A stretch of DNA of 64,000 nucleotides from Actinomycetes bacterium (GTDB lineage Bacteria > Actinomycetota > Coriobacteriia > WRKU01 > WQUG01). The position numbers and the translations under genes were made by a program. Positions 3,432 to 63,670 of this stretch are shown in pieces. The stretch's first letter is position 1. Every line of letters begins with the position of its first letter. The notes beneath the pieces were generated by a model that ran no database searches, had not been told where the DNA came from, and saw nothing but the letters and a program-made list of their open reading frames with translations. Location: positions 7,490-71,489 of the forward strand of contig JAISUC010000021.1 in the NCBI GenBank assembly GCA_031272275.1, given 5' to 3'.

Positions 3432-3462
3432 TAGCACTCATAAAATCTATGTGTGCTATACT
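3432..3462 (+). promoter_or_regulatory. CIRCE-like inverted repeat (TAGCACTC-N9-GTGTGCTA) overlapping an extended -10 TGCTATACT, upstream of clpC
   Basis: Left arm matches the CIRCE consensus TTAGCACTC in 8 of 9 positions and the right arm matches GAGTGCTAA in 7 of 9; the arms are inverted with one mismatch; TGcTATACT at 3454-3462. Confidence 0.45.
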
Positions 3463-3565: not shown

Positions 3566-6118
3566 ATGGCTGAGAATTTCAACTTGTTCGACCGTTTTAC
3601 CGAGGAAGCGAAACGCGCTATTTCCGGCTCGCAGGAAGAGGCGCGCGCACTGATGCAGGATCACGTGGGGACCGAGCATCTTTTGCTGGGACTGATTCAC
3701 AACCCCGGCGTCGTGACCGATGTGCTGGGCGAACTGGACATTGCCCCCGAAGATCTGCGTCTGATGGTCGAGCGCATGAACGAGCGCGCCGAATCGGCTC
3801 CTCCCGGAAACCTGAACTTCACACCCCGCGCGAAACACGTGATCGAGCTCTCAATGCGCGAGGCGATGCGTTTCGGGCACGAATACGTGGGACCCGAACA
3901 CTTGCTGTTGGGCATCTTGGACGAGCCCGACGGCACCGCCGCGCGTGTGCTGGTGAACTTGGGCGGGGACCTGGACCATATCCGCGCGACCATCGTGCAG
4001 GTGCTCTCGACGGCGCACGCCGGTGCCGATGCGGGACCGGGCGGTCGCAGCATGTCGATGCTCGACGAGTTCGGGCGCAACCTGACCGCAGAGGCACAGG
4101 ACGGCAAACTGGACCCGGTTATCGGGCGCACGCGTGAAATCGAGCGCGTGGTGCAGATTCTGTCGCGCCGCATGAAAAACAACCCCGTGCTGATCGGAGA
4201 GCCCGGCGTCGGTAAAACCGCCATTGTCGAGGGCTTGGCACAGCTGATCGCGGCAGACCTGGTGCCCGAGACCCTGCACGGCAAGCAAGTCTATTCACTC
4301 GACATCAGCGGCATGGTCGCGGGCAGTAAGTACCGCGGCGAATTCGAAGAACGCATGAAGCGCGTGATCGAAGAAATCCGCAAACGCGGTGACGTCATCA
4401 TCTTCATCGACGAAATCCACATGCTGGTAGGTTCCGGTTCTGCCGAGGGCTCGATTGACGGCGCGAACATCTTGAAGCCATCGCTTGCCCGTGGAGAGTT
4501 CCAGACGATTGGTGCCACCACCATCGAGGAGTACCGCAAATACATCGAAAAGGACGCCGCGCTGGAACGTCGTTTCCAGCAGGTCCAGGTAAACGAGCCC
4601 ACCAATCCCGAAACGCTGAAAATACTGCAGGGCATCATCGACCGTTACGAGGCATTCCACTGTGTCCATTACACAGAGGCCGCACTGGCCAGTGCCGTGA
4701 CACTCGCGGATCGCTATATTTCCGATCGCTTTATGCCGGACAAGGCCGTCGACCTGATTGACGAGGCGGGCGCGAAACTGCGCATCCAGCGTGCCACCGT
4801 CAGCCCCGAGATTCGCGAGCTGGACAAAAAGATCGAGGCCATCGACGCCGATAAGGAAACCGCGATTATCGCCGGCGAATATGAAAAGGCCTCGCGCCTG
4901 CGCGATGAGGTCAGCACGCTGATTTCCGAGCGCAAGAAACTGATCAAGAAATGGAAAAAGGACGGCGAAGACAATCCCGCCGTGGTGACGCCGTCTGAAA
5001 TTGCCGAGGTCCTGTCGGTCTGGACCGGGATTCCGGTGTCCGACCTGACCGTCGAGGAAAGCAAGCGCCTGATGCAGCTGGAATCCGAACTGCATAAACG
5101 CGTCGTCGGCCAAGACCGGGCAATCGAGGTCGTCAGCCGTGCGATACGCCGCGGTCGTGCGGGGCTCAAGGATCCGCGCCGCCCGGGTGGCAGCTTTATC
5201 TTCCTGGGCCCTAGCGGCGTGGGAAAGACCGAGGCCGCCAAGGCCTTGGCAGAGGTCGTATTCGGCAGCGAATCCGCGCTTATCTCGCTCGACATGAGCG
5301 AATACATGGAAAAGCACTCCATCTCGCGTCTGGTGGGATCACCTCCGGGATACATCGGATATGACGAGGGCGGTCAGCTGACCGAGCGCGTGCGTCGCCG
5401 CCCCTACAGTCTGATCTTGTTCGACGAGATTGAAAAGGCGCACCCGGATGTCTTTAACCTGTTGCTGCAGATTCTGGAAGAGGGCCGTTTGACCGACGGT
5501 CAGGGCCGCACGGTGGATTTCCGCAACACCATACTGATCATGACGTCAAACATCGGGGCGCGCAATATCACCAAGGGCGTGACTTTGGGCTTTTCGATGG
5601 AGCGCGACGAGTTCAGTCAGGACGCCGTGCGTGACAAGGTGACCAGTGAACTGAAAGACCTGTTCCGACCCGAGTTTCTGAACCGCTTGGACGAGGTCGT
5701 GGTGTTTGACGCCCTGACGCGCGATCAAATCGGCGAGATCGTCGACATCATGATCAAGACCACCCAGGACCAGCTGGCTCTGCACGGGCTGTTGCTGCAG
5801 CTGACGGATGGCGCGCGGAACTTCTTGGCGGATCACGGATTCGACAAGGCATCCGGTGCCCGTCCGCTGCGTCGCGCGATTCAGCGCTACATCGATGACG
5901 TCTTGAGCGAAGAGCTCCTCAGCGGGAAATGGGAGGCAGGCGACGTGATCGAGGCGCTGTTTGACGAAACGGCGGCAGAACCGCGCCTGCGTTTCGAGAA
6001 AGTCGAAGGCGCCGAGGGCATCCAACCGGTCGTCGGCGACCTGATGCCCGATGAATCCGCATCAACCCGGACTAAATCGCGTCGACGCACCCCGGCATCC
6101 GCCGGATCTGCCGCATAG
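3566..6118 (+). CDS. clpC: ATP-dependent Clp protease ATP-binding subunit ClpC
   Basis: 850 aa; two Clp_N repeats, two AAA+ modules (GEPGVGKT and GPSGVGKT), UVR-like linker; RBS GAAGGAAG. Confidence 0.95.
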
Positions 6119-6232
6119 GCACGCTCACGCAAACACTGCAAGCGGGCAGCACACACGCTGCCCGCTTGTGTTAATTCTAGGTAAATTCTTCATAATTTCT
6201 AACTGTATACTGTCGACAGTTTTGGTTTTTTG

Positions 6233-6318
6233 TGGTATAAACTATACCCATGGGGGGACCTCATCTACCCCCACGCACCCGAGGGCGGTTCTTCCCACCG
6301 GACCGCCCTCATTCTCTT
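6233..6318 (+). repeat. Repeat unit A: AT-rich box, hairpin GGGGGGAcctcatctaCCCCC, hairpin GGGCGGTtcttcccaccggACCGCCC
   Basis: Near-identical to unit C at 6451-6540; direct observation. Confidence 0.7.
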
Positions 6319-6352
6319 GCCAATCATAAAGGCGACGGGAGCGTGGTGCACT

Positions 6353-6390
6353 GGGCGGTTCTTCCCACCGAACCGCCCTCATTTTTTGCC
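6353..6390 (+). terminator. Partial copy B of the second hairpin plus a T-run (terminator-like)
   Basis: GGGCGGTTCTTCCCACCGAACCGCCC followed by TCATTTTTTGCC. Confidence 0.55.
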
Positions 6391-6450
6391 GCTCACCGAT
6401 GATTCGTTCAGATTGTCCCTGAATTTCCCGGAAAACCGTTTTGTTATGTT

Positions 6451-6540
6451 ATAACTATATGCATGGGGGGACCTCATCTACCCCCACGCACCCACGGGCG
6501 ATTCATCCCACCGGATCGCCCGCACTTCTTTTTTTGGGTC
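6451..6540 (+). repeat. Repeat unit C (second full copy) ending in hairpin plus T7 (terminator-like)
   Basis: ataactatatgCATGGGGGGACCTCATCTACCCCCACGCACCC...GGGCGATTCATCCCACCGGATCGCCC GCACTTCTTTTTTTGG. Confidence 0.7.
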
Positions 6541-6664
6541 TTTCCCCGGGTCTTTATTGTGGTCTTTTGGACCCGGAACCGGTCGTCGATAGTGTCCGGC
6601 ATATATCCGGCACCTCCCCGGACCACGGGCGCTAACCCCGGATCACTCCGAACCAACCGGGTCG

Positions 6665-7797
6665 CTATTCACCGATCAGCCAACGGGTGGCACGGAAACG
6701 TGCGAGCCCTGCCGACAGCACAAACGATACCACCAACAGTACCGCCCACAGCCCCAAAACAGGCAGCAAACCGGCCCATACACGCGCGTGCGCCGGCAAC
6801 AGCGCCTGAGCCGCAACCAGCAACAGCGGATGCACGAAATACACTCCGAACGACAGCGCCGACAGGCGCGTCAGCGGACGTTCGATCCGCCGCCAGACAG
6901 GCTCCAATGCCACCGCAACGGCGATCATGAACAACAACAAAACAGGGTACTTCAACGTCGCCAGCCAGCGTTTGGGCTGCAACAGGAACAGCGCGGCGGC
7001 GGCAGTATCACCGGCCGTGTCCGTTGCCGCTGAATCCGGGCGGTCCGGGCTACCGTCGCCGTCACTTAAGCGATTAACAGTGCGAGTTATCAACTCCCCC
7101 CATCGAATTGCCACCCACGCCCCCAGCATCATATGCGGCAGATGCACCAGCAGGTGTACCAACCACGCGTAGACGTCTGACTGCAGCTGTGTTTGCATCC
7201 AGGGGTTCACGGCGGGAAACAGCCCGACCTTTATGACCAGCGTGACGACGACCAGCAGCTCCGGGCACCACCGGCGCCACCGCAGCATACGGTCAACCAC
7301 CGGTGCCATCGCATACAAGGTCAGCAGCATGGGGACGAAATACAGGTGATACCACACGCGCCCGGACAGCAGCCGTAACAACAGCTCACCGATATGTGCG
7401 GCGTCACGCGGGACGTCTTGCAGCCAGCCGGTGCGGGCCGCCGGCAACAGCAATGCTGCAACCGCGTATAGCACAAACCACGCCAGATAGGGCAGACCCA
7501 CCCGAGTCAGGCGTCGGCGCATAAACCGCACGTAGGCGCCGCGTTCGCGCGCGAAGGGGCGGCCCCAAACCAGAATGCCCGACAGAAAGACCAGCAGCGG
7601 CACCGTGAAATGCAGCGCCGAATCCAGCGCCGCGACCGCACTGCCGCCGGCACCGCTATCGGTACCGGTCCCGCCGCCCGCAAAGCCGCGGGCCGTCATG
7701 CAGGCGTGTATTCCCACCACCGCACACATCGCAACCACGCGCAGCGCGTCATATCCCAGGACTCGTCGTTTGCCGCCGTTTGCCGTCATGCCACCCA
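6665..7797 (-). CDS. Acyltransferase family 3 (OatA-like) integral membrane protein
   Basis: The ORF is open to 8074, but the acyltransferase-3 homology (RRVLGYDALRVVAMCAVVGIHA) starts at the Met near 7797; about 10 TM helices. Confidence 0.65.
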
Positions 7798-7936
7798 TTG
7801 TCGCATGTCGCCCCGGTCTTTGCCCCATTCCTTGCCGCAATCCCCGCTGCAACCGCGGCTCCGCTCGGCAAATTCCCGCAAAAATACCTGCGGCCCCCTT
7901 GACAGCGCCCGCGAAAACCAGCACACTTGAACAGGT

Positions 7937-8044
7937 ATGAAAACGCTGCACACCGATATCACTTCGTTCGAACTGGCATTGCTCGGCCTTCCCTGCCTTA
8001 TCGCCGGCGGTCTGCTTGTGGGCGATAAGGGGACAGGACACTAA
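7937..8044 (+). other. Possible 35-aa leader peptide ORF followed by five GAACGAT direct repeats
   Basis: ATG..TAA ORF MKTLHTDITSFELALLGLPCLIAGGLLVGDKGTGH; the repeats run 8078-8150; speculative. Confidence 0.2.
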
Positions 8045-8165
8045 AGGACGGAGCCGGACGAACAGCAGCGTCATTCCCTAAACGATTGATCTGAACGATG
8101 ACCTGAACGATTGGAACGACTGAACGATTAACATCGTTTGAACATCGTGAAGGTACAGAGGGACG

Positions 8166-8199
8166 AAGGCTCCGTTGCACAGCGGAGCCTTCATTTTTT
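8166..8199 (+). terminator. Intrinsic terminator (AAGGCTCCG-ttgcacag-CGGAGCCTT plus CATTTTTTGG)
   Basis: 9-bp perfect stem plus a T6 run immediately upstream of the XRE-cupin gene; possible attenuator. Confidence 0.6.
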
Positions 8200-8243
8200 G
8201 GGCTCGAACACCACCGACGACCACGAAAGGACCGACACGAACC

Positions 8244-8855
8244 ATGACACCGAACAGTGAAAATGTCACCGCACCCGCAGGCGCCCAGGCCCTAAGCCAC
8301 GTGGGCAACCGCATCCGCACGCTGCGCGAAACGCATCGCGTCACCATCGACCAGCTGGCGGAACGCGCCGGGATGGACGCGGCCGAACTGACCGCCATCG
8401 AGGAATCGAACACCGCCCCCAGTCTGTCGCCGCTGATTAAAATCGCGCGCGCACTGGGCATGCGCCTGGGCACGCTGCTGGACGACGACAACGGCATGGG
8501 ACCTGCAATTACGCGCGCCGCCGACCTGGACAGCGGCAGCAAACGCGGCGCCCTGGAAACCGGCACCAGTGACGCCCCGCTGGATTTCTTCAGCCTGGCA
8601 GAGGGCAAAATTAGCCGTCACATGGACCCCTTCATCATCGACGTCGCGCCCAACACACCGCGCAACCTGGACACCCACGAGGGCGAGGAATTCATCTATT
8701 GCATGTCGGGCGCCATCAAAATCGAATACGGCAAAGACTCCTACCTGCTGGGCCCGGGCGACAGCATCTACTATGACACCGTCGTGCCCCATCAGGTCCG
8801 CGGCGCGGGCGACGGCATTTCGCGCATCCTGGCCTGCGTCTACACGCCGGCATAA
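8244..8855 (+). CDS. XRE-family HTH transcriptional regulator with C-terminal cupin domain
   Basis: HTH_3 motif ([30 protein letters not shown]); cupin motif ([19 protein letters not shown]...GDSIYYD..VPH); ATG preceded by AAAGGA. Confidence 0.75.
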
Positions 8856-8868
8856 GGGGGGGAGTCAG

Positions 8869-10674
8869 ATGTCTACACCTGATTACACAATCCCGGTCAA
8901 CCTGGCGGTCCACCGCGCGGTTGCTGAAAAACTGGGTCGCGACCTGTCGGTCTACGAGGAACCGGACATCGTAAAGGCGCAACCGCGCTACACCGGCCCC
9001 TTCACCGATCTGACGATCGGCGCGTTCCTGGAAAAAGAGGTCGCCGAACATCCCGACCGGGACTTTCTGGTCATGCCCGACCGGGGGCTGCGCTGGTCAT
9101 ATGCCGAATTCAACGACCGGGTGAACGCGCTGGCAAAGGGCCTGTTGGCCATCGGCATGAAAAAGGGAATGCACCTGGGCGTGTGGGCGCGTAACGTGCC
9201 GGATTGGCTGACCTTTATGTATGCCTGCGCGAAAATCGGCGTGGTGTTCGTGACCATGAACAGCGCCTATAAAAGCCACGAGCTGGCATACGTGCTGGAC
9301 CAGTCCGACATGGATGCGCTGGCCGTCATCGATGCCTTCCGCGATGTCGATTACGTCGAGACCATCCGCGAGCTGGTACCCGAATCAACCACGCAGCCGC
9401 GCGGGTATCTGCACAGCGAACGCTTCCCATTTTTGAAATGGCTGATTTACATGGGACCGGAGAAGCATCGCGGCTTTTTCAGCATGCCGGAACTGCTGCT
9501 GCTGGGCGAACACACCGATGATGTGGCGGTGATGGAGGCGTTGGCGGATACGCACCCCGACGACGTGATCAACATGCAGTACACCAGCGGCACCACCGGC
9601 TTTCCCAAAGGCGTGCAGCTGTCGCACAGAAATATTTTGAATGACGGCTACTTTATCGGCGAACGCCAGCATTTCACCGGCGCGGACCGAGTCTGTCTGC
9701 CTGTGCCGCTGTTCCATTGTTTTGGTTGCGTGCTGGGCATGATGGCGATTCTGACCCACGGGGCGACACACGTCATGCTGGAGGAATTCAACGCATTTCT
9801 GGTGTTGTCCGCCATCGAAAAGGAACGCGCGACGGCTGTCTACGGGGTACCGACCATGTTCATCGCCGAACTGGACCACCCGGCATTCGACAGCTTTGAC
9901 CTGACCAGCCTGCGAACCGGCATCATGGCGGGCTCGACCTGCCCGATCGAGACTATGCGGCAGGTCATGGACCGCATGCACATGCCCGAAATCACCATCA
10001 GTTACGGGCTGACCGAAACCAGCCCGGTGTTCATCATGAGCCACGCCGACGACACCGCCGAGCGCAAGGCCGAAACCATCGGCACGGTCATGCCGCACGC
10101 CGACGTGCGTGTCATCGACCCCGAAACCGGAAAGATCTGTGGTCCGGGCGAGGTGGGCGAGCTGTGCTGCCGGGGATACCAGGTCATGAAGGGCTACTAT
10201 AAGATGCCCCAGGCCACGGCAGAGGCCATCGACGCGGACGGGTTTTTGCATTCCGGCGACCTGGGGTGGTATGACGAAGAGGGTTACTATCGCGTGTCGG
10301 GTCGCATCAAAGACATGATCATCCGCGGTGGAGAGAACATATACCCGCGCGAGATCGAGGAGTTTCTCTATACGCTCCCCGAAATCAAAGACGTCCAAGT
10401 GGTGGCCGCCCCGGACGGCAAATACGGCGAGCTGCCGGCCGCGTTCATCATCTTGAATGAAGGCACCGAACTGACCGAAACGGATGTCAAAGAGGCCTGC
10501 TACAAGCGCATGGCACGGTTCAAGGCACCGAAATACGTGCTGTTTGTCGACGAATTCCCGCTGACGACTTCGGGGAAAATTATGAAGTTCAAGATGCGTG
10601 AAATGATAGCGGAAATGTTGGCAAATGGTGAAATCGAGGCCGCGCCCACCTATGATACAATTGCCGCACAATGA
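8869..10674 (+). CDS. AMP-dependent synthetase/ligase (acyl-CoA synthetase family)
   Basis: AMP-binding signature [20 protein letters not shown] plus GYGLTETSP and [15 protein letters not shown]; strong RBS GGGGGGAG; the ORF-track N-terminal extension was rejected. Confidence 0.85.
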
Positions 10675-10749
10675 GTGCGCAGAGGTAACATTAGGACGAC
10701 TGCGGGGCTCCGGAACGAACGATAGAACGAACGACAGAAAGGTACGAGG

Positions 10750-11769
10750 ATGTCACAGAGATTTTTCCGGGTGAAGTTTGCATCGGCGCTGCTGTGTGTG
10801 TGCGTGTGCGCCGCGGTGCCTGCATTGGCGGCTGCGGCAGAGCCGATCAAGCCGGGTGTCGTGGTGACCATCGCGACGAAAAGCGGCCTGAAAAAGGTCA
10901 AGGCCGGCGGCTTGTTGCCCGCCGAGCTCAAGGCGAAACTGGCGAAATACACGCTGAAAAAGGCGCCCTCGTACCTGTATTTCACCGAGCGTGACTACAC
11001 GAAAAAGGTCAAGACCGGGGACCTGAAGATGAAGCCGTCCGTGTCAAGTCTGGTGCAACAGGCATCCGTTGCGGCAACCGACACGGCCATCGGCGGCAAG
11101 TACGTGACGGCTGCCGCCGAAAAGAAACTGGCCAGCCGCATCAAGTCGCTGGCAAAGAAGGTCAAGGTCAAGGCGAAATCCGCAAAAGTCGCCGGCGGTG
11201 GCAAGGTCAAGAACCTGGGTGGCCGCACGCTGGATCAGGCAAAAGCACTGAAGGCGGCCGTAAAGGCGCTGAACAGTTACGGCACGGGCAAGGCGAAAAA
11301 GCCCAAGGTGTTGGCAGCGCCGATTATCCGGTCAAAGCCCAAGATGACCGGGCGCAGCGGCAAGGGCAAGGTGTTGGTGTCCACGCTGACCTCGCGGCGC
11401 GTGTACCTGTTCAAGGCTAACAAGCTGGTGGCGGAATACGGAATCTGCATCGGCATGCCGGGATATGCGACCCCGACCGGTACCTACCGGGTCGCACGGA
11501 AAGCCAAAAACCCCACCTGGCGCAATCCGGGTGCCGCCTGGTCACAGGGTATGGCGGAAAGCATCAGCGGTCCCTATGGTCCGTTGGGTAAACGCGCGCT
11601 GTACCTGACGAAGAACGGTCGCGACATCGGCATCCGTTTTCATGGGACCTACAAAAGCTACTCGATTGACAAGGCGCAGTCACACGGTTGCATGCGTCTA
11701 AAGAACGCAGACATCGTCAAGCTGTACCCGAAGGTACCGGTGGGTACCCTGGTCACGGTCGTCAAATAA
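10750..11769 (+). CDS. Secreted Lys-rich L,D-transpeptidase (YkuD domain) protein
   Basis: Signal peptide; K-rich linker; C-terminal YkuD catalytic motif SHGCMRL. Confidence 0.75.
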   Translation: MSQRFFRVKFASALLCVCVCAAVPALAAAAEPIKPGVVVTIATKSGLKKVKAGGLLPAELKAKLAKYTLKKAPSYLYFTERDYTKKVKTGDLKMKPSVSSLVQQASVAATDTAIGGKYVTAAAEKKLASRIKSLAKKVKVKAKSAKVAGGGKVKNLGGRTLDQAKALKAAVKALNSYGTGKAKKPKVLAAPIIRSKPKMTGRSGKGKVLVSTLTSRRVYLFKANKLVAEYGICIGMPGYATPTGTYRVARKAKNPTWRNPGAAWSQGMAESISGPYGPLGKRALYLTKNGRDIGIRFHGTYKSYSIDKAQSHGCMRLKNADIVKLYPKVPVGTLVTVVK

Positions 11770-11772
11770 CTC

Positions 11773-13059
11773 ATGGCGGTAAATCCGGTCACCGTTCCCG
11801 CAGGTTCGCGCGTCGTCGTGGTGGTATCCACCGGCGCTTTGGACGCCGATGCACTGCAGGCGATAGAAACAGACGACCTGACGATGCCCGATGTCTTGGG
11901 CATGAGCCAGGGGGCGGCGCTGGAAGCCGTCTCGCGCATTCGGCTGCGCCCGCGCGTGATATACGACTATCACGAGACCCTGCGCAAAGGCAGCGTTATG
12001 GCACAGCATCCGGCGTCGGGCACGCGCGTATCGCCCGACTTGGAGTCGCTGCTGCTGGTTTCCAGCGGGCCGTCCATCAATGAACGTGTCCCGGTGAACC
12101 TGCCGAATGTGGTGGGAATGAGTGAATCCGATGCGGCAGCCCGTCTGCGCGCGGCCGGCCTGTCCCCCCAGTTCGTGCACGAGAAATCCGCCACGGTACC
12201 GGCGGGCTTGGTATCGGCTCAGATACCGGACGAGGCGTCCCTGGCCGTGCGTCCCAAATCGCGCGGTTGGATCGCCTGGCTGCTGATTGCGCTGTTGGTA
12301 ATCGTGCTTGCGGTCTTCGGGATACCCTACCTCAGCCGCAGTTTCCGTTCACAAACGCCCGCGGACCAAGGCGTCACCCAGGTCAAGGTCCCCGATGTCG
12401 TGGGAAAGCAATTGGATGACGCGACCACAGCCATTCAGGACGCCGGGTTAAAGGTCGGAACGATTGTCTATGTGGAAGCCACGTCCGGCAAAAAGTCGGG
12501 TACTGTGACCGCCTCGACTCCGGCAGCGGGCCAATCGGTCGCCGCCGATTCTCCGGTGATTTTGGAGGTCGTCGGTAATGCGCCGGCCGATCAGCCCGAC
12601 AATGGGACGAAAGTGATCGAGGAAACCGCGACCGTCCCCGATGTGTCCGGTCTGACCGAAAAGGCCGCGCGCAAGGCCTTGGATGCAGCCGGTTTCAAGG
12701 TGTCGACGATCGACAGCCCGTCCGAAACGGTGAAGTCGGGCATGGTCATCACCCAGAGTCCTGCCGCCGGGGCTGCGGTCTCGCCCAAGAGCACGGTGGT
12801 TATCGTGCTGTCATCGGGGGCTCCGGCAGACCCCACCACTGTGGACGTGCCCGAGGTTGTGGGACTGCCCGTGGCTGACGCAACCCAGACCCTGCAGAAC
12901 TTGGGACTGGTGGTCAAGCTGACGCCCGATGGCGCGGCAGGAAACGTCACCGAGCAAGTACCCGCACAAGGCTCGACGGTACCCAAGGGCAGCGTCGTCA
13001 TCCTGACCGTCGCCGGCGACGACACAAACACCCCACCATCTACTGATACCCAGCAGTAA
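11773..13059 (+). CDS. PASTA-domain membrane protein (about four PASTA repeats, one TM helix)
   Basis: Repeated PDVxGxxxxxAxxxLxxAGL modules; TM segment GWIAWLLIALLVIVLAVFGIPYL; starts 4 nt after the Ldt stop. Confidence 0.7.
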   Translation: MAVNPVTVPAGSRVVVVVSTGALDADALQAIETDDLTMPDVLGMSQGAALEAVSRIRLRPRVIYDYHETLRKGSVMAQHPASGTRVSPDLESLLLVSSGPSINERVPVNLPNVVGMSESDAAARLRAAGLSPQFVHEKSATVPAGLVSAQIPDEASLAVRPKSRGWIAWLLIALLVIVLAVFGIPYLSRSFRSQTPADQGVTQVKVPDVVGKQLDDATTAIQDAGLKVGTIVYVEATSGKKSGTVTASTPAAGQSVAADSPVILEVVGNAPADQPDNGTKVIEETATVPDVSGLTEKAARKALDAAGFKVSTIDSPSETVKSGMVITQSPAAGAAVSPKSTVVIVLSSGAPADPTTVDVPEVVGLPVADATQTLQNLGLVVKLTPDGAAGNVTEQVPAQGSTVPKGSVVILTVAGDDTNTPPSTDTQQ

Positions 13060-13106
13060 TCATGTCCTCACCGGCACCGTTGACGGTCGCCGGTATACCG
13101 GTGGCT

Positions 13107-13204
13107 GTCATTCCGTGGGCGTCGTAGGCGGGCGCGGCAATCTACCGGCCGGGTTGCAATCCTCAAACGTCATTGCGAGCCCGCCGTAGGCGGGCGCGGC
13201 AATC
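13107..13204. repeat. Two copies of a REP-like palindromic element (GTCATTGCGAGC-core-GCGGCAATCC family)
   Basis: Copies at 13107-13143 and 13169-13204; the same family occurs at 24941-25075 and 27689-27757. Confidence 0.7.
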
Positions 13205-15485: not shown

Positions 15486-15825
15486 CCTGCTGCAAGTTCA
15501 GCGACAGCGGAATTGTGATGTGGTCGATCAACGGGCGAGGTCGAGGAGTGTGAGTGGTTCTGCGAGGTAAGCGGGCTGTAGCCCGTGTCCGAGCACGGTT
15601 CCGAAACACGACAATGACATTCGCCCGTTCAGCGACCACATCCGATCACATAGGAAACGAGCCTCTTACTGAGGCCCGTTTCCCGACTGATGAGGGGAAC
15701 CCTGTTTATCGCCAAGCCGGTGCGTGCGACTTGACCCTTCGCGCACAGGATCCCATGCACCTAAATCGTAGCCGACATACCGCGCGTCAAAGGTTTTATC
15801 CTATACATCCCCCCGAATAATCCTT

Positions 15826-15834
15826 GCTATACTA
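15826..15834 (+). promoter_or_regulatory. Extended -10 promoter TGCTATACT placed 5 nt before the cysS ATG (leaderless)
   Basis: Shares CCTTGCTATAMT with the ispD promoter; no SD. Confidence 0.5.
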
Positions 15835-15839
15835 CGGAT

Positions 15840-17402
15840 ATGAAGATTTACAATACCATGACCCGCACAAAGGAAACCTTCGTACCGCGCGAGCCCGGGC
15901 GCGTCGCAATGTACGTCTGTGGACCGACCGTCTACAACTACATTCACATCGGTAACGCGCGCACATTCCTGTCCTTCGACGTGATTCGCCGCTACCTGAC
16001 TTGGCGCGGTTTTCAGGTGACCTTCATCCAAAATATCACCGATGTCGACGACAAAATCATCCGCCGCGCCGCCGAAGAGGCGCGCGAACCGTCCCAGGTG
16101 GCTGACGACTATACTCGCGCCTTCATCGACGAGATGCGCGCGCTGGGGGTTGCCGACCCCACGATTCGCCCCTTTGCGACGGCGATGATTCCGGCGATGA
16201 TCGACATGATCCGGCGCCTGATCGACACCGACCACGCTTACGTGGCCGGCGATCGTGACGACAGCGCGGACACCGACGGTTCCGCACCCGACAGCCCCGC
16301 TGCCCCCGCCGGCGACGTGTATTTTTCCGTGCGCTCATTTCCCGATTACGGCAAGCTGTCCGGCCGCAACGTCGACGAACTCCGCCATGGCGCGCGCATC
16401 GCGGTCGACGAACGCAAACGCGACCCGCTGGATTTCGCCCTGTGGAAAGCCGCAAAGCCCGGCGAACCGGCCTGGAACAGCCCCTGGGGCCCGGGACGTC
16501 CCGGCTGGCACATCGAATGTTCCGCCATGTCGGCAGACGAACTGGGCCTGCCCTTTGACATCCACGGCGGCGGCGTGGACCTGATATTCCCGCACCACGA
16601 AAACGAAATCGCCCAATCCGAGGCCGCGACCGGAACCCGCATGGCAAACTACTGGCTGCACGGCGGCATGCTGCAAACCGGCGGCGAAAAAATGAGCAAA
16701 TCCCTGGGCAACTTCCTGCTGCTGCACGACGTGCTGGAACGCTATGAACCGGCCGTCATCCGCCTGTTGATGCTGCAAACGCACTACCGCAGCCCCATCG
16801 AGTTCTCCGACGAACGCCTACAGGAAACCCGCAGCACCTTGGATCGCATCCGCGGCTTCCTGGACCGCGCGCGCAGGACACAGACAATAGGGCGGGGGAG
16901 CACGTCCCGCACCGACGATTTGAGTGCGGCTGTTACCGCGGCCCGCGACAAGTTCGTGACCGAAATGGACGACGACTTTAACGCGGCCGGTGCCCTGGCG
17001 GCTCTGTTCGAGTTGATACGGTACGGCAACCGGTATCTGGATGCGCTGCAGACAGCGGGCGATACCGGTGATACGGCTGATGCAGGCGACGACGGTGCCA
17101 CCGCCACCGACGCAAGCGCCGCCGCACCCGCCACCGACGCTCCCGACACGGCGCTGCAATCCGTCACCGACACTTTGGTCGAACTGCTGGATGTCTTAGG
17201 CATTGACCCGACGCCACCGGCAGACACTGCCGCAGACGCCCCCGATGCGCAGGCGCAACAGCTGCTGGAACAGCGCAGCGCCGCACGTGCCGCCAAAGAT
17301 TGGGCGCGTGCCGATGCGATTCGCGACGACCTGGACGCACGGGGCTACACCATCGAAGACACCGCGGCAGGCCCCCGCCTGGTCCGCAAACAACCGGCGT
17401 AA
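15840..17402 (+). CDS. cysS: Cysteine--tRNA ligase
   Basis: [17 protein letters not shown] (HIGH) and KMSKS; Asp/Ala/Thr-rich low-complexity insert and tail. Confidence 0.95.
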
Positions 17403-55648: not shown

Positions 55649-58600
55649 ATGGCACTACGGGGGAAATGTCGTCTGCTCTTGCCGGTCTGCGTTGTTCTCA
55701 CACTCTGCGGAATAGCTATCCGTGCGTTTGCGACAGAACCCATCAGCGGCTATACGCCACCCGCCATTGATTCCACAGACATAAACGAAGCCGACTACGA
55801 GTCGTTGCTGGACATCCCGCGGCAGGCGGTGCGGGGTCTGCGCACGACGGTCAGCGCTGACCCCTTGCCCGCCAGTTTCGATTGGCGAACAGAAAACCCA
55901 CAGATTCTGGTGGCAGCCCGCGATCAGAACCCCTATGGCAGTTGCTGGGCATTTGCCGCCACGGCGGTCATGGAGGGCAGTGCCGTTCAAAACGGATTGA
56001 CGGCAACCTCGATTATGCTCTCTCCGAAACAATTGGTGTATGCCGCCTATAACAGTCAAACCTTCGAGACACCCGCCGGTTACAGTGCGCTGAATGCCGG
56101 CGGAAACAGCCTGTATTCGGCGGCGGCATTGGGCAAATGGTTCGGTCCGGTTGACGAGGCGCGCGTGCCCTACGGAACCTCGACCGCGATTACCGACCCT
56201 GCCATCTATGCTGCCAGCGACTATCACCTGCGCGAGATGCGCATGTTGCCGATGCCGAAAAACAACACGACGGCACAGGCAGCCTATTCCGCCGAAAATG
56301 TGGAAACGATTAAGCGGGCGGTCAAAACGTGGGGACCTGTCGCGACCGCGTTTTACTGGGGGAATTATTGGAAGTCATCGACGAACAGTCCCTACAATTC
56401 GACGGTTTATTACTACTGCAACAACTCCCATTACAATCCCGCCGATCCTTATGGCAACCCACTCGGTGTCAATATCCCGAACCATGCGGTGGTGATCGTG
56501 GGCTGGGACGACAGCATTTCCCGGACGAATTTCAATACAAACATCGATAGCCAACCCCCGGGTGACGGGGCGTGGTTGATTCGCAACAGCTGGGGTCCGA
56601 CCTTTGGACAGGCAGGCTATTTCTGGATGTCGTATTACGACAAATCCATGGACACCAGCGAATACTTCAGCATCGAGGATGTTTCGAACTACGACCACAA
56701 CTATTACTGGGACGCGATGGGCTGGATCGGCGGCGAAATCGAAAACGATGGCGACGCCGCAGACGCCGCGCAAATCGCAAACGTGTTCACATCAACGGCA
56801 ACGACCACGGTGGCACAGGAACTGCGTGCCGTCAGCTTTTACACCGACGAACCGGACACCGACTACGAGATCGCCGTCTACCTGAACCCGACCGATGGCA
56901 GTCCGACAGGTCCTTTGCAGGCAGATGTCGCAGACGGCGCCGCGCTGACGATCACCGGAAACAAAGTCTACGCGGGGCTTTATACCGTCGACCTGGACAT
57001 TCCGGTGTATTTGCCCGCAGGGCAGACCTTCTCGGTGGTTGTCACCTTGTCACGCACGGATGGCGTGGACGCAATCCCGGTCGAGGCCAGCGACAGCGGC
57101 ACGACCCTGCAGGGCGATCCGGCTTCCGGGCTGCTGTCAACCGGCGTCGACGGGTTGGATATCGCCCCGGGTCAAAGCTACTATCGCTTCACCGCAGCCC
57201 CGGGCGACAGCAGCCCCGTCACCGACCCCGTCTGGACCGACGTCTATGACACGGTCTCGGCGCCCAATTCAGACTACGCCGACTGTGGCAACGTGAACGT
57301 GAAAGCCCTGACGGTCGACACCTCCGCAACCGCAGCCGCGCGTTATACGATCGGCTTTGATTCCTGCGGTGGCACATCCGTGCCGGCGACCACCATCGCC
57401 TCCGGTGCCCCGTACGGCACGCTTCCCACCCCCACGCGCGCCGGCTGCGACTTCCTGGGCTGGTTCACCGAATCGGTCGAGGGCACGCAGGTCACCGCAG
57501 CCACCACCGCGACCGAAAATCGCATCCTCTACGCACACTGGGGCTACGTCATCACCTTTGATGCACGCGGTCACAGCGCCGACACAACCGTTACCTTGTC
57601 CGGCGGACACGCGCTGACCACCCTGCCGGCAGACATCACGCGCGCCGGCTACACTTTCGCCGGCTGGTGGACTGAACCCGACGGCGGTTTTCCCATCGCC
57701 GCCGGCATCTTTCCCGCAGGTAGCACGGCCTATTACGCCCGCTGGACCTGCACGATTACCTATGACGCGCGCGGCGGCAGCAGCACCCCCGCCACCCAGA
57801 CGGTCTTTGACGGCGCAACCGTCACGCTACCCACAGCGACGCGCGCCGGTTACACCTTCGGCGGCTGGTGGACCGCCGCCACCGCAGGATCGCAGGTCGG
57901 TTCGGACTGGCACGCCGGTGGAGACATCACGCTCCACGCCCATTGGAACAGCACCGTCAGTTTTGATGTCAACGGGGGGGATACCGCCACGACGCCACCG
58001 CCCATCGTGGTCGCCCAGGACAGCGCCTATGGCCCGCTGCCGACGGCGATGCGCGCCGGCTATACCTTCGACGGTTGGTATACGGCACCCGGCGGGGGAG
58101 TACGGGTCGGCAGCGACGATTATCCCGCCGGCGGGGATGCGACCCTGTACGCCCGGTGGGTCAGCGTTGTCGTGTGGGATGCGCGCGGTTTCAGCACTGA
58201 CACCACCCGGGCGGTTGCGTTCGGGTCTGCGGTCGGTACCTTGCCGGCTGACGTGACGCGCGCCGGCTACACATTTGCCGGCTGGTGGACGGCTGCGGAC
58301 GGTGGTACGCAGGTCACGGCCGCCGCGGTGCCTCCCGGAAATGTGACCTATTATGCGCGCTGGACCTGTACGGTGAGCTTTGACACGCACGGCGGCACGG
58401 CGGCACCGGCGCTGACCGTGTTTCAGGGACAGTCGGTCACGTTGCCTGCGGTTTCGCGCGTCAGCTACAGTTTCGCCGGCTGGTGGACGGACGCGACCGG
58501 CGGCACGCAGCTGACCGGTTCGTATACGCCTGCCGGCGACATCACGCTGCACGCGCACTGGTGCAGCCGTATCGTCCTGAACGCGAACGGCGGAATCACA

Positions 58601-59998: not shown

Positions 59999-60658
59999 TC
60001 ACTCTTCTGTATCCTCACTAAAGTCAAGAGCGAGTTGCTCTCCTGCTTTCAGGTGTTCCTCTTCTGCTTTCAGGAGTTTCTCGAACCGTTTTTGCACGAT
60101 TTCTTCCAATGATTTCACGAGTTCTTGCAAATCTTCAATATCTTTCAGTTCGCGTAGCGAAAAAAGGGTGTCACCAAATTCATCTCGATATCGACGATAC
60201 AGAACAACGGGTTTGTTGTTCAGCAGTAGCTGGATTGCATTTCTCAGACTTCCCGAGCTTACCGATAGCTGTCCGTAACGTGGGTGCATATACGTATCCT
60301 GCCACACAATCAAACCATATTTGCACGCGTCACCCATTGCCCGGTCTTTTTCTGTTTCCCGTTCTTTTTGCTTACGTGGTTTACCGTCTTCACTAGATTT
60401 TTCTTCGGCCTTTGGTGAAACCTGAACTATGTCCCAGTCCTCCGGCACCTTTATCCGGGGCGTATCGTGAATGGTGTATACCGTGACGTTGGTATACTTA
60501 CGTTTTCTGAGATCTTCAGCGATACGAGCATCAACCCCCCTCTCAGAGTCACCGATCAACACGGGGATATCTTGGTCGACAATGTTGGCAATTCGTTCCT
60601 CTAACTCCTCGGGCAGAGAATCAATCTGTCGTGATCCGCTAATGAACACAGAACCCAT
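59999..60658 (-). CDS. SLOG/DprA-like Rossmann-fold protein (N-terminal FISGSR...VLIGDSERGVD) with an acidic coiled-coil C-terminus
   Basis: 219 aa; low-GC island gene; the pattern resembles DprA/YpsA/LOG-type nucleotide-binding modules; the family assignment is tentative. Confidence 0.5.
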   Translation of the reverse strand: MGSVFISGSRQIDSLPEELEERIANIVDQDIPVLIGDSERGVDARIAEDLRKRKYTNVTVYTIHDTPRIKVPEDWDIVQVSPKAEEKSSEDGKPRKQKERETEKDRAMGDACKYGLIVWQDTYMHPRYGQLSVSSGSLRNAIQLLLNNKPVVLYRRYRDEFGDTLFSLRELKDIEDLQELVKSLEEIVQKRFEKLLKAEEEHLKAGEQLALDFSEDTEE

Positions 60659-60718
60659 TAAATACTCCTTAAATTCTTCAGTTAATCTGTCGAGACTCCA
60701 TTGTACCCGCCCCGTCCC

Positions 60719-61468
60719 TTAAAAGGGAATGTCTTCGGTCAGGACCTCGACGCTCGGGCCGTTTTGTCGAGACTCAGCTGTACCCACCCCGTCCTTTTTT
60801 ATACCACCACCGGTGTTTTTGCAGAGTGACAGGAAGTATATGTGACCGGCTCCGTTCTTCTGCAGTTCCTTAATACAGGCCCGTAAGGTGGCACCTTCCT
60901 CATACGTGTCATCAACAATCAAGGTGGGAAGGCCATTCAAAGTATAAGTGCACGAGAAATCACCTTCAGAAAAATTAGATCCCCTCTCTTTTCTTTTCGA
61001 CTCCACACACGTCTTCTTCAGTAAGGCTTCAACGTATCGGTATTCAGGTGTTGCGAGTCCTTGTGCGATTGCATAGACGTGCTGAATATCTCGGTCTTTC
61101 GAGGACGGAGCCGGCACGATCAAAAGAGACCCGAGGTCTTCTGCCGCAACCAGGTTTTTGATTACACCGGATTTCTTTATTCTACTTACCGCATCACTGA
61201 TGAGTTCCAGCTTTTCCTTCCTACCAAGATTCTTCCAATACTTTAAGTGATTGATAGTCTCCCCGAAATCAGAGCGATTGGCAGCGTCCTTATGATACGG
61301 TTGGATTGCCAAGCCCTTGGTAAGACCGTCTGCAGTGATGGGAAGAAAAAGCCTACTGCCACAACCACCGAACCAGTCTTTGCAATAGTACTCACCTTCA
61401 TGGAGTTTACTCTTCATAATATCGGTGTTGCCACAAAACGGGCATCGCTCTATTCCTAGGAATTCCAT
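60719..61468 (-). CDS. ComF-like phosphoribosyltransferase-domain protein with N-terminal C4 zinc ribbon
   Basis: CPFCGN..C..GGCG zinc ribbon; PRTase type I motif LIVDDTYEEGATLRACIKEL; strong RBS GAGGAGGTG. Confidence 0.75.
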   Translation of the reverse strand: MEFLGIERCPFCGNTDIMKSKLHEGEYYCKDWFGGCGSRLFLPITADGLTKGLAIQPYHKDAANRSDFGETINHLKYWKNLGRKEKLELISDAVSRIKKSGVIKNLVAAEDLGSLLIVPAPSSKDRDIQHVYAIAQGLATPEYRYVEALLKKTCVESKRKERGSNFSEGDFSCTYTLNGLPTLIVDDTYEEGATLRACIKELQKNGAGHIYFLSLCKNTGGGIKKDGVGTAESRQNGPSVEVLTEDIPF

Positions 61469-61569
61469 TTCTTCACCTCCTCACAAAACGGGCATCGCTT
61501 TTTCTCGATTACCTTGACCCTGCCTTGTTTCTGCATCTCTTTAAATAAATCCAACATACTCTTAGCCAT
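61456..61569 (-). CDS. 37-aa ORF (MAKSMLDLFKEMQKQGRVKVIEKKRCPFCEEVKKWNS) that duplicates the PRTase N-terminal half zinc ribbon and overlaps the PRTase start
   Basis: RBS GAGGTGG 7 nt upstream; an 18-nt direct repeat cacaaaacgggcatcgct sits at 61432-61449 and 61482-61499; not in the supplied ORF track (under 60 aa). Confidence 0.3.
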   Translation of the reverse strand: MAKSMLDLFKEMQKQGRVKVIEKKRCPFCEEVKKWNS

Positions 61570-61581
61570 CTTTTCCACCTC

Positions 61582-62904
61582 TCACTGCAGACCGCGTTTT
61601 ATGATCTTCATATGACGCTTTGTTCCCTTGAATAGTGACGGGCTTCGTTCGAATGTTCGATGGGATCGCTTTACGTAGTTCAGGAAATTCGGCTGCTTTC
61701 GATCCCCCTTCTCCGAATAGATCTGATAGAGCATCCTTCTTGATTTTGCCCCTTTATGTGGGTCTTGTGCCGCAATGGCGTTTACCGTATTGATCTTTCG
61801 GCGTAGGCGATAGTGGTATTTTGAAATGGTCTTATCGCGAATGCGGACTTCCGTGCCGTCAATAGCGAAACCCAGATATTCCAACACATCTTTCGTGTTC
61901 GGTGTATCCGGCAGATAGTCCTCGTTGCAGTTGTGGATTGCACTGTGCACACGGTGATAAACACGGGTTTTGTCCGGCTGCAGGTCGAGCCCGGGGATTG
62001 AATCAATAATGCCGACCAGCCTTTTGTAGATACAATCAAAACCGACTCCGTCCGTTTCGTCGGAAGGGATGATGACGATGAAGTCATCACAATAGCGCAT
62101 GTATTTACCGGAGTATTCCGTCACCAAATCATGTATCAACTTGTCGAATTCCAGCATATAGACGTTTGATAAAACCCCACTGATGGGGGAGCCTTGCGGT
62201 ATCCCATAGTCGTTGTCATTACGTGCGATAGCACCACTGCGCGATTCGCGTTTACTCAACTGCCTGTATTGCTCAGGGGTCAACACACGCTTTTTTCGGT
62301 CGAGCTCTCTGCGCGTCTTAACCCCATTGATTTCCAGCAAGGACTTCAGGCTCCAATCAGAATAGCGCGTGATGTTCTTGTAGACCGCATAATAATCAGC
62401 AGGGAGCTTTGGGGCACCAAACAATGAAAGAAGTCGTTCTTTCAAGTACCGATGATCCAAGTGGTCAAAGAAGCCCGTAAAATCCCCAATCAACACAAAA
62501 CACTCCGGATGCTCGGCAATACAATCAAAGGCCGCTTTCGCGAAGTCTATGTTGCATTTTTTCAGGTCTGACCGATATGCAATGGCACAATCAGCGGTGC
62601 CGTCAACAGCAATGCGCCGAACGTACTTTTCCTCCAACAGCAGCGAATAGTATTGATAGATGCAGCGATCGATGTGCGCGGCATAGCGAATGGGGCGTTC
62701 TTTTGCCTTGGTACCGGTTCCCTTGTGGTATTTCCGCGTATGCTCGACGTAGTGAATAAAAGGATAGAATCCGTGTCGCGCAACTTTTTCGGGATCCGTG
62801 ATGTAATCCCATTTGCTGTCGCAGCTTACGCGCAGATCAAAGTGCGCGTAGCCTTTTGGCTTGCTGTGTTTATTTCGCCACTCGTGCAGCTGTTCGGGGG
62901 TCAT
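61582..62904 (-). CDS. Reverse transcriptase (retron/defence-associated RT-like, canonical motifs 1-7)
   Basis: RPIRYAAHIDRCIYQYY (motifs 1/2), DFTGFFDHLDH (motif A, D..FF), GIPQGSPISGVLSNVYM (B'), YCDDFIVI (YxDD), LGFAIDG (motif 7); 440 aa with a basic C-terminal tail. Confidence 0.85.
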   Translation of the reverse strand: MTPEQLHEWRNKHSKPKGYAHFDLRVSCDSKWDYITDPEKVARHGFYPFIHYVEHTRKYHKGTGTKAKERPIRYAAHIDRCIYQYYSLLLEEKYVRRIAVDGTADCAIAYRSDLKKCNIDFAKAAFDCIAEHPECFVLIGDFTGFFDHLDHRYLKERLLSLFGAPKLPADYYAVYKNITRYSDWSLKSLLEINGVKTRRELDRKKRVLTPEQYRQLSKRESRSGAIARNDNDYGIPQGSPISGVLSNVYMLEFDKLIHDLVTEYSGKYMRYCDDFIVIIPSDETDGVGFDCIYKRLVGIIDSIPGLDLQPDKTRVYHRVHSAIHNCNEDYLPDTPNTKDVLEYLGFAIDGTEVRIRDKTISKYHYRLRRKINTVNAIAAQDPHKGAKSRRMLYQIYSEKGDRKQPNFLNYVKRSHRTFERSPSLFKGTKRHMKIIKRGLQ

Positions 62905-63167
62905 ATTGTTGTCCCCGAATGCACAAAAGCCACCGGCACGGGGTACGACATCCCTAATCCGGTGGCCCTAAAACGATAATACCTGATGTCATTGACATCG
63001 TCGGCCGTACTCAATTGCACACAAAGTGCGATCATGTAGTTCAATACTTCCCTTATCCCTGCGGATAAGGCGTCCCCATTGTAGATGATTTGCGTTGGGC
63101 TGTCAACGCTCGTTTCGAAGCCGACCAATTGCCTCTCCTGCTCTTCCAGCGGAATAATACTTCCCAT
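62901..63167 (-). CDS. 88-aa hypothetical ORF translationally coupled to the RT (ATGA overlap); alternatively a non-coding RNA region
   Basis: Its stop overlaps the RT start codon; the region holds several stable hairpins (62930-62965, 62985-62999, 63051-63070), so a structured ncRNA is equally possible. Confidence 0.35.
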   Translation of the reverse strand: MGSIIPLEEQERQLVGFETSVDSPTQIIYNGDALSAGIREVLNYMIALCVQLSTADDVNDIRYYRFRATGLGMSYPVPVAFVHSGTTI

Positions 63168-63336
63168 CGTAGAGGCCGTTCTCTTTCAGGATGCGAATCT
63201 GATTTGAGGTCGCATGATGATTCCACATTTCAGAGTTATGATACTGGCTACGATAGCCATGCTGCGCACTTCTATAGATAGCCTTACGGTTATGATAGCC
63301 ATCGCTATAATCGGAATATGAGTTGCGCCTTGCCAT
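63103..63336 (-). CDS. 77-aa Tyr/His/Ser-rich small protein, first gene of the island operon
   Basis: Strong RBS GAGGAAGGG 8 nt upstream of ATG; unusual composition (12 Y, 7 H). Confidence 0.4.
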   Translation of the reverse strand: MARRNSYSDYSDGYHNRKAIYRSAQHGYRSQYHNSEMWNHHATSNQIRILKENGLYDGKYYSAGRAGEAIGRLRNER

Positions 63337-63403
63337 TTGGCATACCCCTTCCTCAACTACTGTTTCCGGTAATCCACCTCAAACCCGAAAATGTGCCAGC
63401 GCA

Positions 63404-63431
63404 AAAATAGCACAGGGGGGGGGGCTGTCAA
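63404..63431 (-). promoter_or_regulatory. Promoter of the island operon: TTGACA - G/C10 homopolymer in the 16-nt spacer - TATTTT
   Basis: Minus-strand TTGACAG-C10-TGTGC-TATTTT; the 10-nt homopolymer tract is at 63415-63424. Confidence 0.45.
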
Positions 63432-63670
63432 GGAGGCTTTTTTCAGTTGCAGATGGGGTACCGATTACGATGAAATCCGCAGTTCAAGCTGCCTCCGCAC
63501 GCCGTCCACCAAACAGAGCCACACTAAAGCGGGGGAGTACGTCCCGGCGTCTGCGTTGGGCTGCGCGCCTGCTGCCGGATGGGCGCTGCTGCGGGACGCA
63601 CTCCCCCCCCTGAAAACGTGGGATTCCGTGTTCAGTTAACTGCAAAATACGTGAAAGTAACTGTCAATAG

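Follow-up and report, generated by a model that had tools for sequence, protein, structure and literature searches.

The gap downstream of clpC in an uncultured actinobacterium holds two near-identical copies, and a third decayed copy, of a compact module in which a promoter-like AT-rich box, a first hairpin (HP1), a C-rich linker and a second, GC-rich hairpin (HP2) with a T-run follow one another on the plus strand. This repeat is real, non-random and structurally constrained. It is most economically read as two sibling small RNA (sRNA) genes accompanied by a decaying third copy, and we regard the two units as a plausible orphan pair. More precisely, we propose that units A and B are paralogous genes for sRNAs of ~65-75 nt, next to a decayed copy, that would work like the C-rich-loop sRNAs LhrC, 6C and RsaE. 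This is a tentative proposal to which we give slightly less than even weight, and in which the likeness in mode of action to LhrC and 6C is suggested by loop composition only.

The repeat units border a lineage-specific segment

The window analysed here is a 64-kb stretch of DNA from a metagenome-assembled genome (MAG) of an uncultured actinobacterium. Its ClpC protein is 100% identical to NCBI entry MDR1775873.1, and the next-best matches, at 75-81% identity, are labelled Coriobacteriia. The gene is followed by a gap, which a preliminary description of this DNA had correctly placed after clpC but given as 545 nt instead of 546 nt, and then by a convergent acyltransferase gene (Table 1). Since ClpC and the acyltransferase have consecutive protein accessions, no CDS was annotated by NCBI in this gap. 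The 469-aa open reading frame (ORF) called mechanically for the acyltransferase is probably too long: the identical protein is called at 374-377 aa in public data (NCBI, Logan), and this shorter call would put the true start at ~7798, with a larger non-coding region (~7799-8243) upstream of it.

In the nearest ClpC relatives (six loci, 75-81% amino acid identity), ispD, ispF and a hexapeptide transferase gene come immediately after clpC with no gap, whereas in the window these genes and cysS begin only at position 13173. The extra ~7 kb (6119-13172) contain the units, the Acyl_transf_3 gene and the genes for an XRE-cupin regulator, an AMP-binding enzyme, a YkuD L,D-transpeptidase and a 5xPASTA protein. 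Considering that clpC abuts ispD in the relatives while ~7 kb separate them in the window, the units therefore stand at the left edge of a lineage-specific segment. The genes of this segment are of cell-envelope type, with no integrase or other mobility gene seen; a reading of the repeat as an att site was rejected, as no integrase was found in the segment.

A hairpin resembling an intrinsic terminator lies directly 3' of the clpC stop codon and is stronger than the hairpins of the units. Because clpC has this hairpin of its own, the units are not just the clpC terminator, and they are not needed for ending clpC. As the next gene is convergent, neither of the flanking genes is thus served by the units in a usual manner.

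Table 1. Features of the clpC locus, with positions in the window (CM, score with the covariance model)
Feature	Position	Strand	Description
clpC	3566-6118	+	
Gap 3' of clpC	6119-6664		546 nt
Intrinsic-terminator-like hairpin of clpC	6137-6170	+	13-14 bp, -27.4 kcal/mol, tail TTAATTCT
Palindrome ACTGTCGACAGT	6209-6220	not applicable	perfect, 12 bp; unique in window
Unit A, full module	6225-6318	+	T-rich stretch, TGGTATAAACT box, HP1, linker, HP2, weak T-rich tail; CM 99.3 bits
Promoter-like box of unit A, TGGTATAAACT	6233-6243	+	extended -10 TGnTATAAA, or TAAACT-N6-AUG
HP1 of unit A	6251-6273	+	6-bp U/G5 stem, 11-nt loop GACCUCAUCUA, -10.7 kcal/mol
Linker of unit A	6274-6280	+	C-rich, unpaired, CGCACCC
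HP2 of unit A	6281-6310	+	11-bp GC-rich stem, loop UUCCCACC, -21.1 kcal/mol; then ATTCTCTTG
Middle decayed unit	6325-6387	+	CATAAAG box, HP2 copy, T6; CM 31.5 bits, E 3e-5
Unit B, full module	6438-6536	+	T-rich stretch, TGTTATAACT box, HP1, linker, HP2, T7; CM 96.9 bits
Promoter-like box of unit B, TGTTATAACT	6447-6456	+	extended -10 TGnTATAAC
HP1 of unit B	6464-6486	+	identical to HP1 of unit A
HP2 of unit B	6495-6522	+	10-bp stem, loop AUCCCACC; two compensatory double changes relative to unit A
T-run TTCTTTTTTT after HP2 of unit B	6527-6535	+	T7 at 6529-6535
Acyltransferase gene (Acyl_transf_3)	6665-8074	-	convergent with clpC

The module itself was duplicated

Ungapped repeat finding paired 6225-6311 with 6438-6524 over 87 nt at 83% identity, and it recovered the 31-nt hairpin segment of HP2 in three copies (6283-6313, 6353-6383 and 6496-6526). 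Two near-identical units and a half unit after clpC, as claimed in the preliminary description, were thus confirmed; the unit coordinates given there were right in place but not in onset, as the similarity between units A and B starts ~8 nt further upstream, at 6224 and 6437, respectively. The middle unit has ~20 unrelated nucleotides in place of HP1, and its HP2 copy (6353-6378) is 97% identical to HP2 of unit A. A 31-nt core (ATGGGGGGACCTCATCTACCCCCACGCACCC) occurs exactly twice in the window, and the 26-mer of HP2 occurs three times when up to three mismatches are allowed, with zero occurrences expected from dinucleotide shuffles in both cases. The block of exact identity extends over 32 nt and corresponds to HP1 plus the linker (6249-6280 and 6462-6493).

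Neither mismatch searches nor a covariance model that was derived from the two full units and run with its filters off detected further copies in the 64-kb window, where the copy number is two full units and a decayed third. The next match of the covariance model, at 57671 with 13.7 bits, falls within the ORF of a 1542-aa repeat protein and was dismissed as spurious. A reading of the units as MITE or REP elements was also rejected, since there are no terminal inverted repeats and no dispersed copies, the only three in 64 kb being local.

The copied segment extends from ~25 nt upstream of the putative start site to the terminator tail, with no relation between the stretches of DNA that separate the units or lie outside them. 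Since the ends of the repeat match the ends of the module in otherwise unrelated DNA, it is the module itself that was copied and kept. A Logan contig from an independent k=31 assembly (SRR14710912) is 100% identical to the window over 6464-6680 and breaks off at the repeated core, the behavior expected with a true repeat of 31 nt or more. This contig probably comes from the same sample, in which case it confirms the sequence of unit B and not an independent conservation.

Hairpins, terminator signals and constraint

The anatomy described earlier, namely an AT box, a G6/C5 hairpin and a GC-rich hairpin with a T-run, all duplicated, holds, and both hairpins fold on the plus strand. Folding of whole units A and B on this strand gave -33.9 and -33.8 kcal/mol (z-scores of -4.2 and -4.4), compared to z-scores of -2.4 to -2.9 on the minus strand. 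HP2 alone reaches -17 to -21 kcal/mol with z-scores of about -4.5 to -5. HP1, the G6/C5 hairpin, whose 11-nt loop includes CCUC, is weak when taken alone (z-score of -0.6) and hence no better than shuffles of its own composition.

A terminator scan was passed by all three HP2 copies, and on the plus strand only, each displaying the GC-rich stem-loop followed by a T-run that characterizes intrinsic (Rho-independent) terminators; the T-run of unit A (TCATTCTCTT) is weak, and that of the middle copy is a T6 at 6382-6387. Five terminator-like sites were observed in the region when 0.9 was expected from shuffles, and four of the five strongest terminator-like hairpins of the first 20 kb fall within 6137-6522, all on the plus strand. 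The scan of the region found no T-run after a hairpin on the minus strand, showing that the hairpins do not terminate the acyltransferase gene and bearing out the earlier view that the units are not simply its terminators. A reading of the units on the minus strand was rejected on the same ground, together with the less pronounced z-scores of that strand. An additional strand argument from a G-U pair in HP2 was dropped, both strands having similar total folding energies. Directly after the T-run of unit B and before the 3' end of the acyltransferase gene, (G)GGTCTTT is found three times with a 12-nt spacing (6527-6567).

The differences between units A and B are unevenly spread: none falls in the 32 positions of the HP1-linker core, as opposed to 13 in the 58 aligned flanking positions, and 7 of 33 positions differ in HP2. 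Under uniform divergence, a clean block of 32 nt would have a probability of ~3e-4 by our own calculation. Such an identical core could result either from selection acting on the primary sequence or from a local gene conversion. In HP2, both double changes affect the two sides of a pair (G-C to A-U and A-U to C-G), one G-U pair became A-U in the middle copy, and only the outermost pairs are lost. Across the three copies, 90.9% of the cells are paired, clearly set apart from the 21-49% obtained when the partner column is slid; the shuffle control is weak with three sequences, 110 out of 500 shuffles reaching the observed value. HP1 shows no covariation because its two copies are identical.

Like tandem intrinsic terminators, the units stack GC-rich hairpins and T-runs in one orientation within a convergent intergenic gap. 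Together with the clpC hairpin, the three HP2 copies might then act as four plus-strand intrinsic terminators in series, that is, as a stacked terminator or insulator that would mop up read-through from clpC and shield the convergent acyltransferase gene from antisense transcription, with the AT boxes and HP1 as mere passengers. We consider this rather unlikely, albeit a serious alternative. The four terminator-like hairpins do stand serially on the plus strand between convergent genes, HP2 is the only part found in three copies and the only one with structure-preserving substitutions, HP1 is thermodynamically ordinary and the promoter-like boxes deviate from the consensus; furthermore, the tails of the clpC terminator and of unit A are both imperfect, so that read-through would be plausible under such a reading. 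What this scenario leaves unexplained is that HP1 and the linker are the best-conserved part of the units, ahead of HP2, and that a rare TGnTATAA box stands at the start of the copied segment: unlike in ordinary terminator stacks, the hairpins with T-runs are preceded by a duplicated, rare -10-like box and by a perfectly conserved extra hairpin with its linker. Moreover, the relatives manage with clpC running straight into ispD, and one strong terminator (-27 kcal/mol) is already present upstream of the units. The preliminary description had left the choice between sRNA genes and a repeated terminator cassette. Considering that clpC has its own terminator, that HP2 carries compensatory changes, that the core is conserved while its flanks have diverged and that the box is rare and resembles those in front of clpC and cysS, sRNA genes are favored over a plain clpC terminator, even though the sequence alone cannot separate sRNA genes from a repeated terminator cassette.

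Searches for homologues

Scanning the whole window against Rfam with cmscan at gathering thresholds returned zero matches, and scanning 6000-6800 with E-values up to 10 returned five chance matches to unrelated families, none of which was 6C or LhrC. No tRNA or tmRNA was found by ARAGORN. The exact 21-mer of HP1 had zero matches in 185,579 species genomes and JGI metagenomes, and a degenerate, stem-free pattern of the loop and linker had 12 matches in metagenomes, which is about the chance expectation, none of them with stems or HP2. Purine/pyrimidine (R/Y)-degenerate patterns of HP1 and HP2 had zero matches in a viral contig collection, and blastn against plasmids and phages gave no match either.

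The covariance model was applied to a total of 20 loci from relatives. It found no match at the six clpC loci described above, and none that was credible at 14 loci from genomes with relatives of the acyltransferase (26-38% identity), where the best score was 17.8 bits with no stems paired. A closer acyltransferase homologue (48% identity) lies on a 1.2-kb contig of which the 59 nt of downstream flank are uninformative. Thus, the two checks suggested in the preliminary description, against Rfam and for conservation in relatives, yielded no family match and no homologue in any relative or collection. The conservation considered here is consequently that between paralogues only, for which gene conversion could also account.

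This absence of homologues in genomes, metagenomes, viruses, plasmids, phages and relatives' loci is also what may be seen if the units were neutral duplication debris at a rearrangement junction, generated by slippage or duplication along with the ~7-kb insertion between clpC and ispD. The identical core would then reflect a recent gene conversion and not selection, and the hairpins would be incidental. The position of the units coincides exactly with the left edge of the lineage-specific segment, the middle copy is visibly decaying and short direct repeats (GGGTCTTT, three times) adjoin, all of which fit with such an origin. We nevertheless find it distinctly improbable: two compensatory double substitutions and a G-U to A-U change in HP2 would be unexpected for drifting junk, a gene conversion limited to exactly HP1 and the linker is an ad hoc assumption, and an ordered series of box, hairpin, terminator hairpin and T-run on a single strand is unlikely to be random.

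Promoter-like boxes and the possibility of leaderless transcripts

In both units, a TGnTATAA box is found 8-9 nt before an AUG or a G-run, the AUG being followed by the run of six Gs. The TGNTATAA motif has four sites in the 64 kb when both strands are considered, and two of these four are the boxes of the units. The unit hexamers (TATAAA and TATAAC) do not have the canonical final T, and a generic sigma-70 scan did not call the unit boxes. Boxes of the TGnTAYACT type are found upstream of clpC (3454), cysS (15825) and other genes, so that an extended -10 seems to be the local promoter style. Upstream of unit A, a -35-like TCGACA (6213-6218) is located inside the palindrome ACTGTCGACAGT, 17 nt before the TATAAA of TGgTATAAA, making this palindrome a possible candidate operator or -35 element, for unit A only; no -35 match was found upstream of the box of unit B. 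The TGCTATACT boxes of clpC and cysS are at 3454-3462 and 15825-15842, respectively. The former is 112 nt upstream of the clpC ATG, and the cysS ATG comes exactly 7 nt after the hexamer (TATACT-N6-ATG), which suggests that the cysS mRNA may be leaderless.

The TAAACT-N6-AUG arrangement of unit A has the same geometry as that of cysS, with an AUG at the expected start site. The units might therefore be read as genes for leaderless small proteins starting at the A of the AUG (6250 and 6463) and encoding a short peptide that begins with MGGPHLPPRT(R/H)GRF(F/I)PPDRPH. In the first 21 codons, five of the seven differences between units A and B are at third positions and four of the six changed codons are synonymous (P ~0.05, our own calculation). 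The two compensatory stem pairs, with columns that happen to be 15 and 27 nt apart, explain this excess at third positions. The frames of 50 aa (unit A) and 155 aa (unit B) have no common stop and diverge completely after codon 21, the 155-aa frame runs antisense into the acyltransferase gene, every terminator comes ahead of the stop codons, and the third copy of HP2 falls in another frame. NCBI annotated no CDS in the gap, a Pfam search of six ORFs of the gap gave no match, and the 50-aa ORF had no homologue among 5.8 billion proteins. Lacking a Pfam match and a homologue, the coding reading was rejected, and we only keep it as a minor rival of very low probability.

The slimmest chance of all is given to a variant of this idea. 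With a predicted start at the AUG, a genome that apparently uses leaderless mRNAs and terminators located before any in-frame stop, the units could be dedicated leaderless non-stop mini-transcripts on which ribosomes would load at the 5' AUG, run to the 3' end and be rescued by trans-translation, generating a tagged Clp substrate beside clpC. If so, the units could serve as a built-in probe or regulator of the ribosome-rescue and Clp capacity.

A proposed model with two putative sibling sRNA genes

The sRNA reading is favored by the order of box, hairpin, linker and terminator, all on one strand. In this model, each unit would be a self-contained transcription unit of the plus strand, in which RNA polymerase would start 7-9 nt after the TGnTATAA extended -10, at or near A6250 in unit A and A6463 in unit B. 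The transcript would then consist, from its 5' end, of HP1, the C-rich linker and the strong GC-rich hairpin HP2, and transcription would stop at the T-run, giving predicted RNAs of ~65-75 nt. Since the T-rich tail of unit A is weak, transcription of this unit may sometimes continue to the HP2 and T6 of the middle copy, resulting in an RNA of ~135 nt. Three C-rich segments would be exposed, namely loop 1 (GACCUCAUCUA), the linker (CGCACCC) and loop 2 (UUCCCACC), and these may pair with G-rich sequences of the Shine-Dalgarno (SD) type on mRNAs from elsewhere in the genome, thereby repressing translation. The activity of the box as a promoter, the ends of the transcripts and the trans-acting mechanism are all predictions. 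Pairing with SD-type sequences that represses translation is experimentally established for LhrC, RsaE and 6C. When the 64-kb window was scanned for target duplexes, the best non-self duplex had -31.4 kcal/mol, compared to -30 to -35 kcal/mol for shuffled queries, so that no candidate target in the window rose above this background.

A close parallel in terms of arrangement is offered by LhrC1-5 of Listeria monocytogenes, which are encoded by several near-identical gene copies, some of them adjacent, each giving a short RNA with two stem-loops of which the second is the terminator (PMC4132741). The units similarly combine near-identical copies with two stem-loops, the terminator being the second. 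The UCCC motifs of LhrC are located in loop A, in a single-stranded stretch and in the terminator loop; in the units, loop 2 has UCCC in all three copies (UUCCCACC/AUCCCACC), whereas loop 1 (CCUC) and the linker (CACCC) are C-rich but not UCCC. Unlike LhrC, the units belong to another phylum (a high-GC actinobacterial MAG) and their predicted RNAs are shorter (~65-75 nt), and the two have no similarity in sequence or covariance model (Rfam).

The 6C sRNA (B11) of Actinobacteria uses C-rich loops to bind G-rich mRNA sites without a chaperone, and it is a single-copy sRNA conserved across Actinobacteria and defined by its conserved sequence and structure (PMC6486639). A high-GC Gram-positive host and stem-loops with C-rich loops are common to 6C and the units, a shared mode of action being only proposed for the latter. 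In contrast with 6C, the units fail the Rfam 6C model and have no copies in the genome and metagenome collections or at relatives' loci. Altogether, the units belong to neither the LhrC nor the 6C family.

Sibling sRNAs, such as Qrr and the C-rich sRNAs of the RsaE/RoxS type, are encoded by paralogous genes in tandem or close to each other, every gene having a promoter and a terminator of its own, with an identical seed region between diverged flanks. Another example is the NgncR_162/163 pair of Neisseria (PMC9973317). The units follow this pattern with their identical 32-nt core and diverged promoter and terminator regions; while sibling sRNA pairs are verified and conserved across species, the units are known from their sequence anatomy and we infer the rest.

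Should the units turn out to be transcribed, this uncultured, Coriobacteriia-related lineage would have its first described candidates for regulatory sRNAs, and the units would cleanly illustrate how sibling sRNA genes arise where a rearrangement has recently taken place. With one intact copy that has a -35, one intact copy that has none and one copy that is decaying, they would then bear on how sRNA genes are born, duplicated and lost. Their practical value is limited, as they are an orphan in one MAG and as the mechanism proposed is already established for LhrC, RsaE and 6C. If they are only a terminator stack or debris, they would be ordinary.

Other features of the window

In the divergent region between the acyltransferase gene and the gene of the XRE-HTH/cupin regulator (8244-8855, plus strand), CTGAACGATT is repeated four times with a spacing of 12-17 nt and is accompanied by inverted ATCGTT copies (8078-8200). 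A strong terminator-like hairpin of the plus strand (8165-8192, -20.1 kcal/mol) with a T6 run lies 3' of this array, ~50 nt before the ATG of the regulator gene. Rfam had no match at 8078-8200, which could be an operator array with an attenuator or another small transcript.

Near the other end of the window, a 440-aa ORF of the minus strand (61582-62904) was identified as a DRT2 (UG2) defence-associated reverse transcriptase (PADLOC Drt2, E-value of 8e-142; Pfam RVT_1). Its flanks (59999-63578) include an upstream gap of 674 nt on the minus strand (62905-63578), which we take to be where the DRT2 template ncRNA would be expected; Rfam had no match in this gap. The next ORF downstream of DRT2 (60719-61468, minus strand) has a weak likeness to ShosT/PsyrT-type proteins (E-value of 3e-7). 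Two direct repeats of 33 nt, 85% identical and 77 nt apart (60688-60720 and 60765-60797), straddle the end of this ORF and the gap before ORF 59999-60658. Their sequence on the minus strand reads GGACGGGG(T/C)GGGTACA..GAGTCTCGACA, and they are preceded on that strand by a TGGTATAAAA box that is one of the four TGNTATAA sites of the window.
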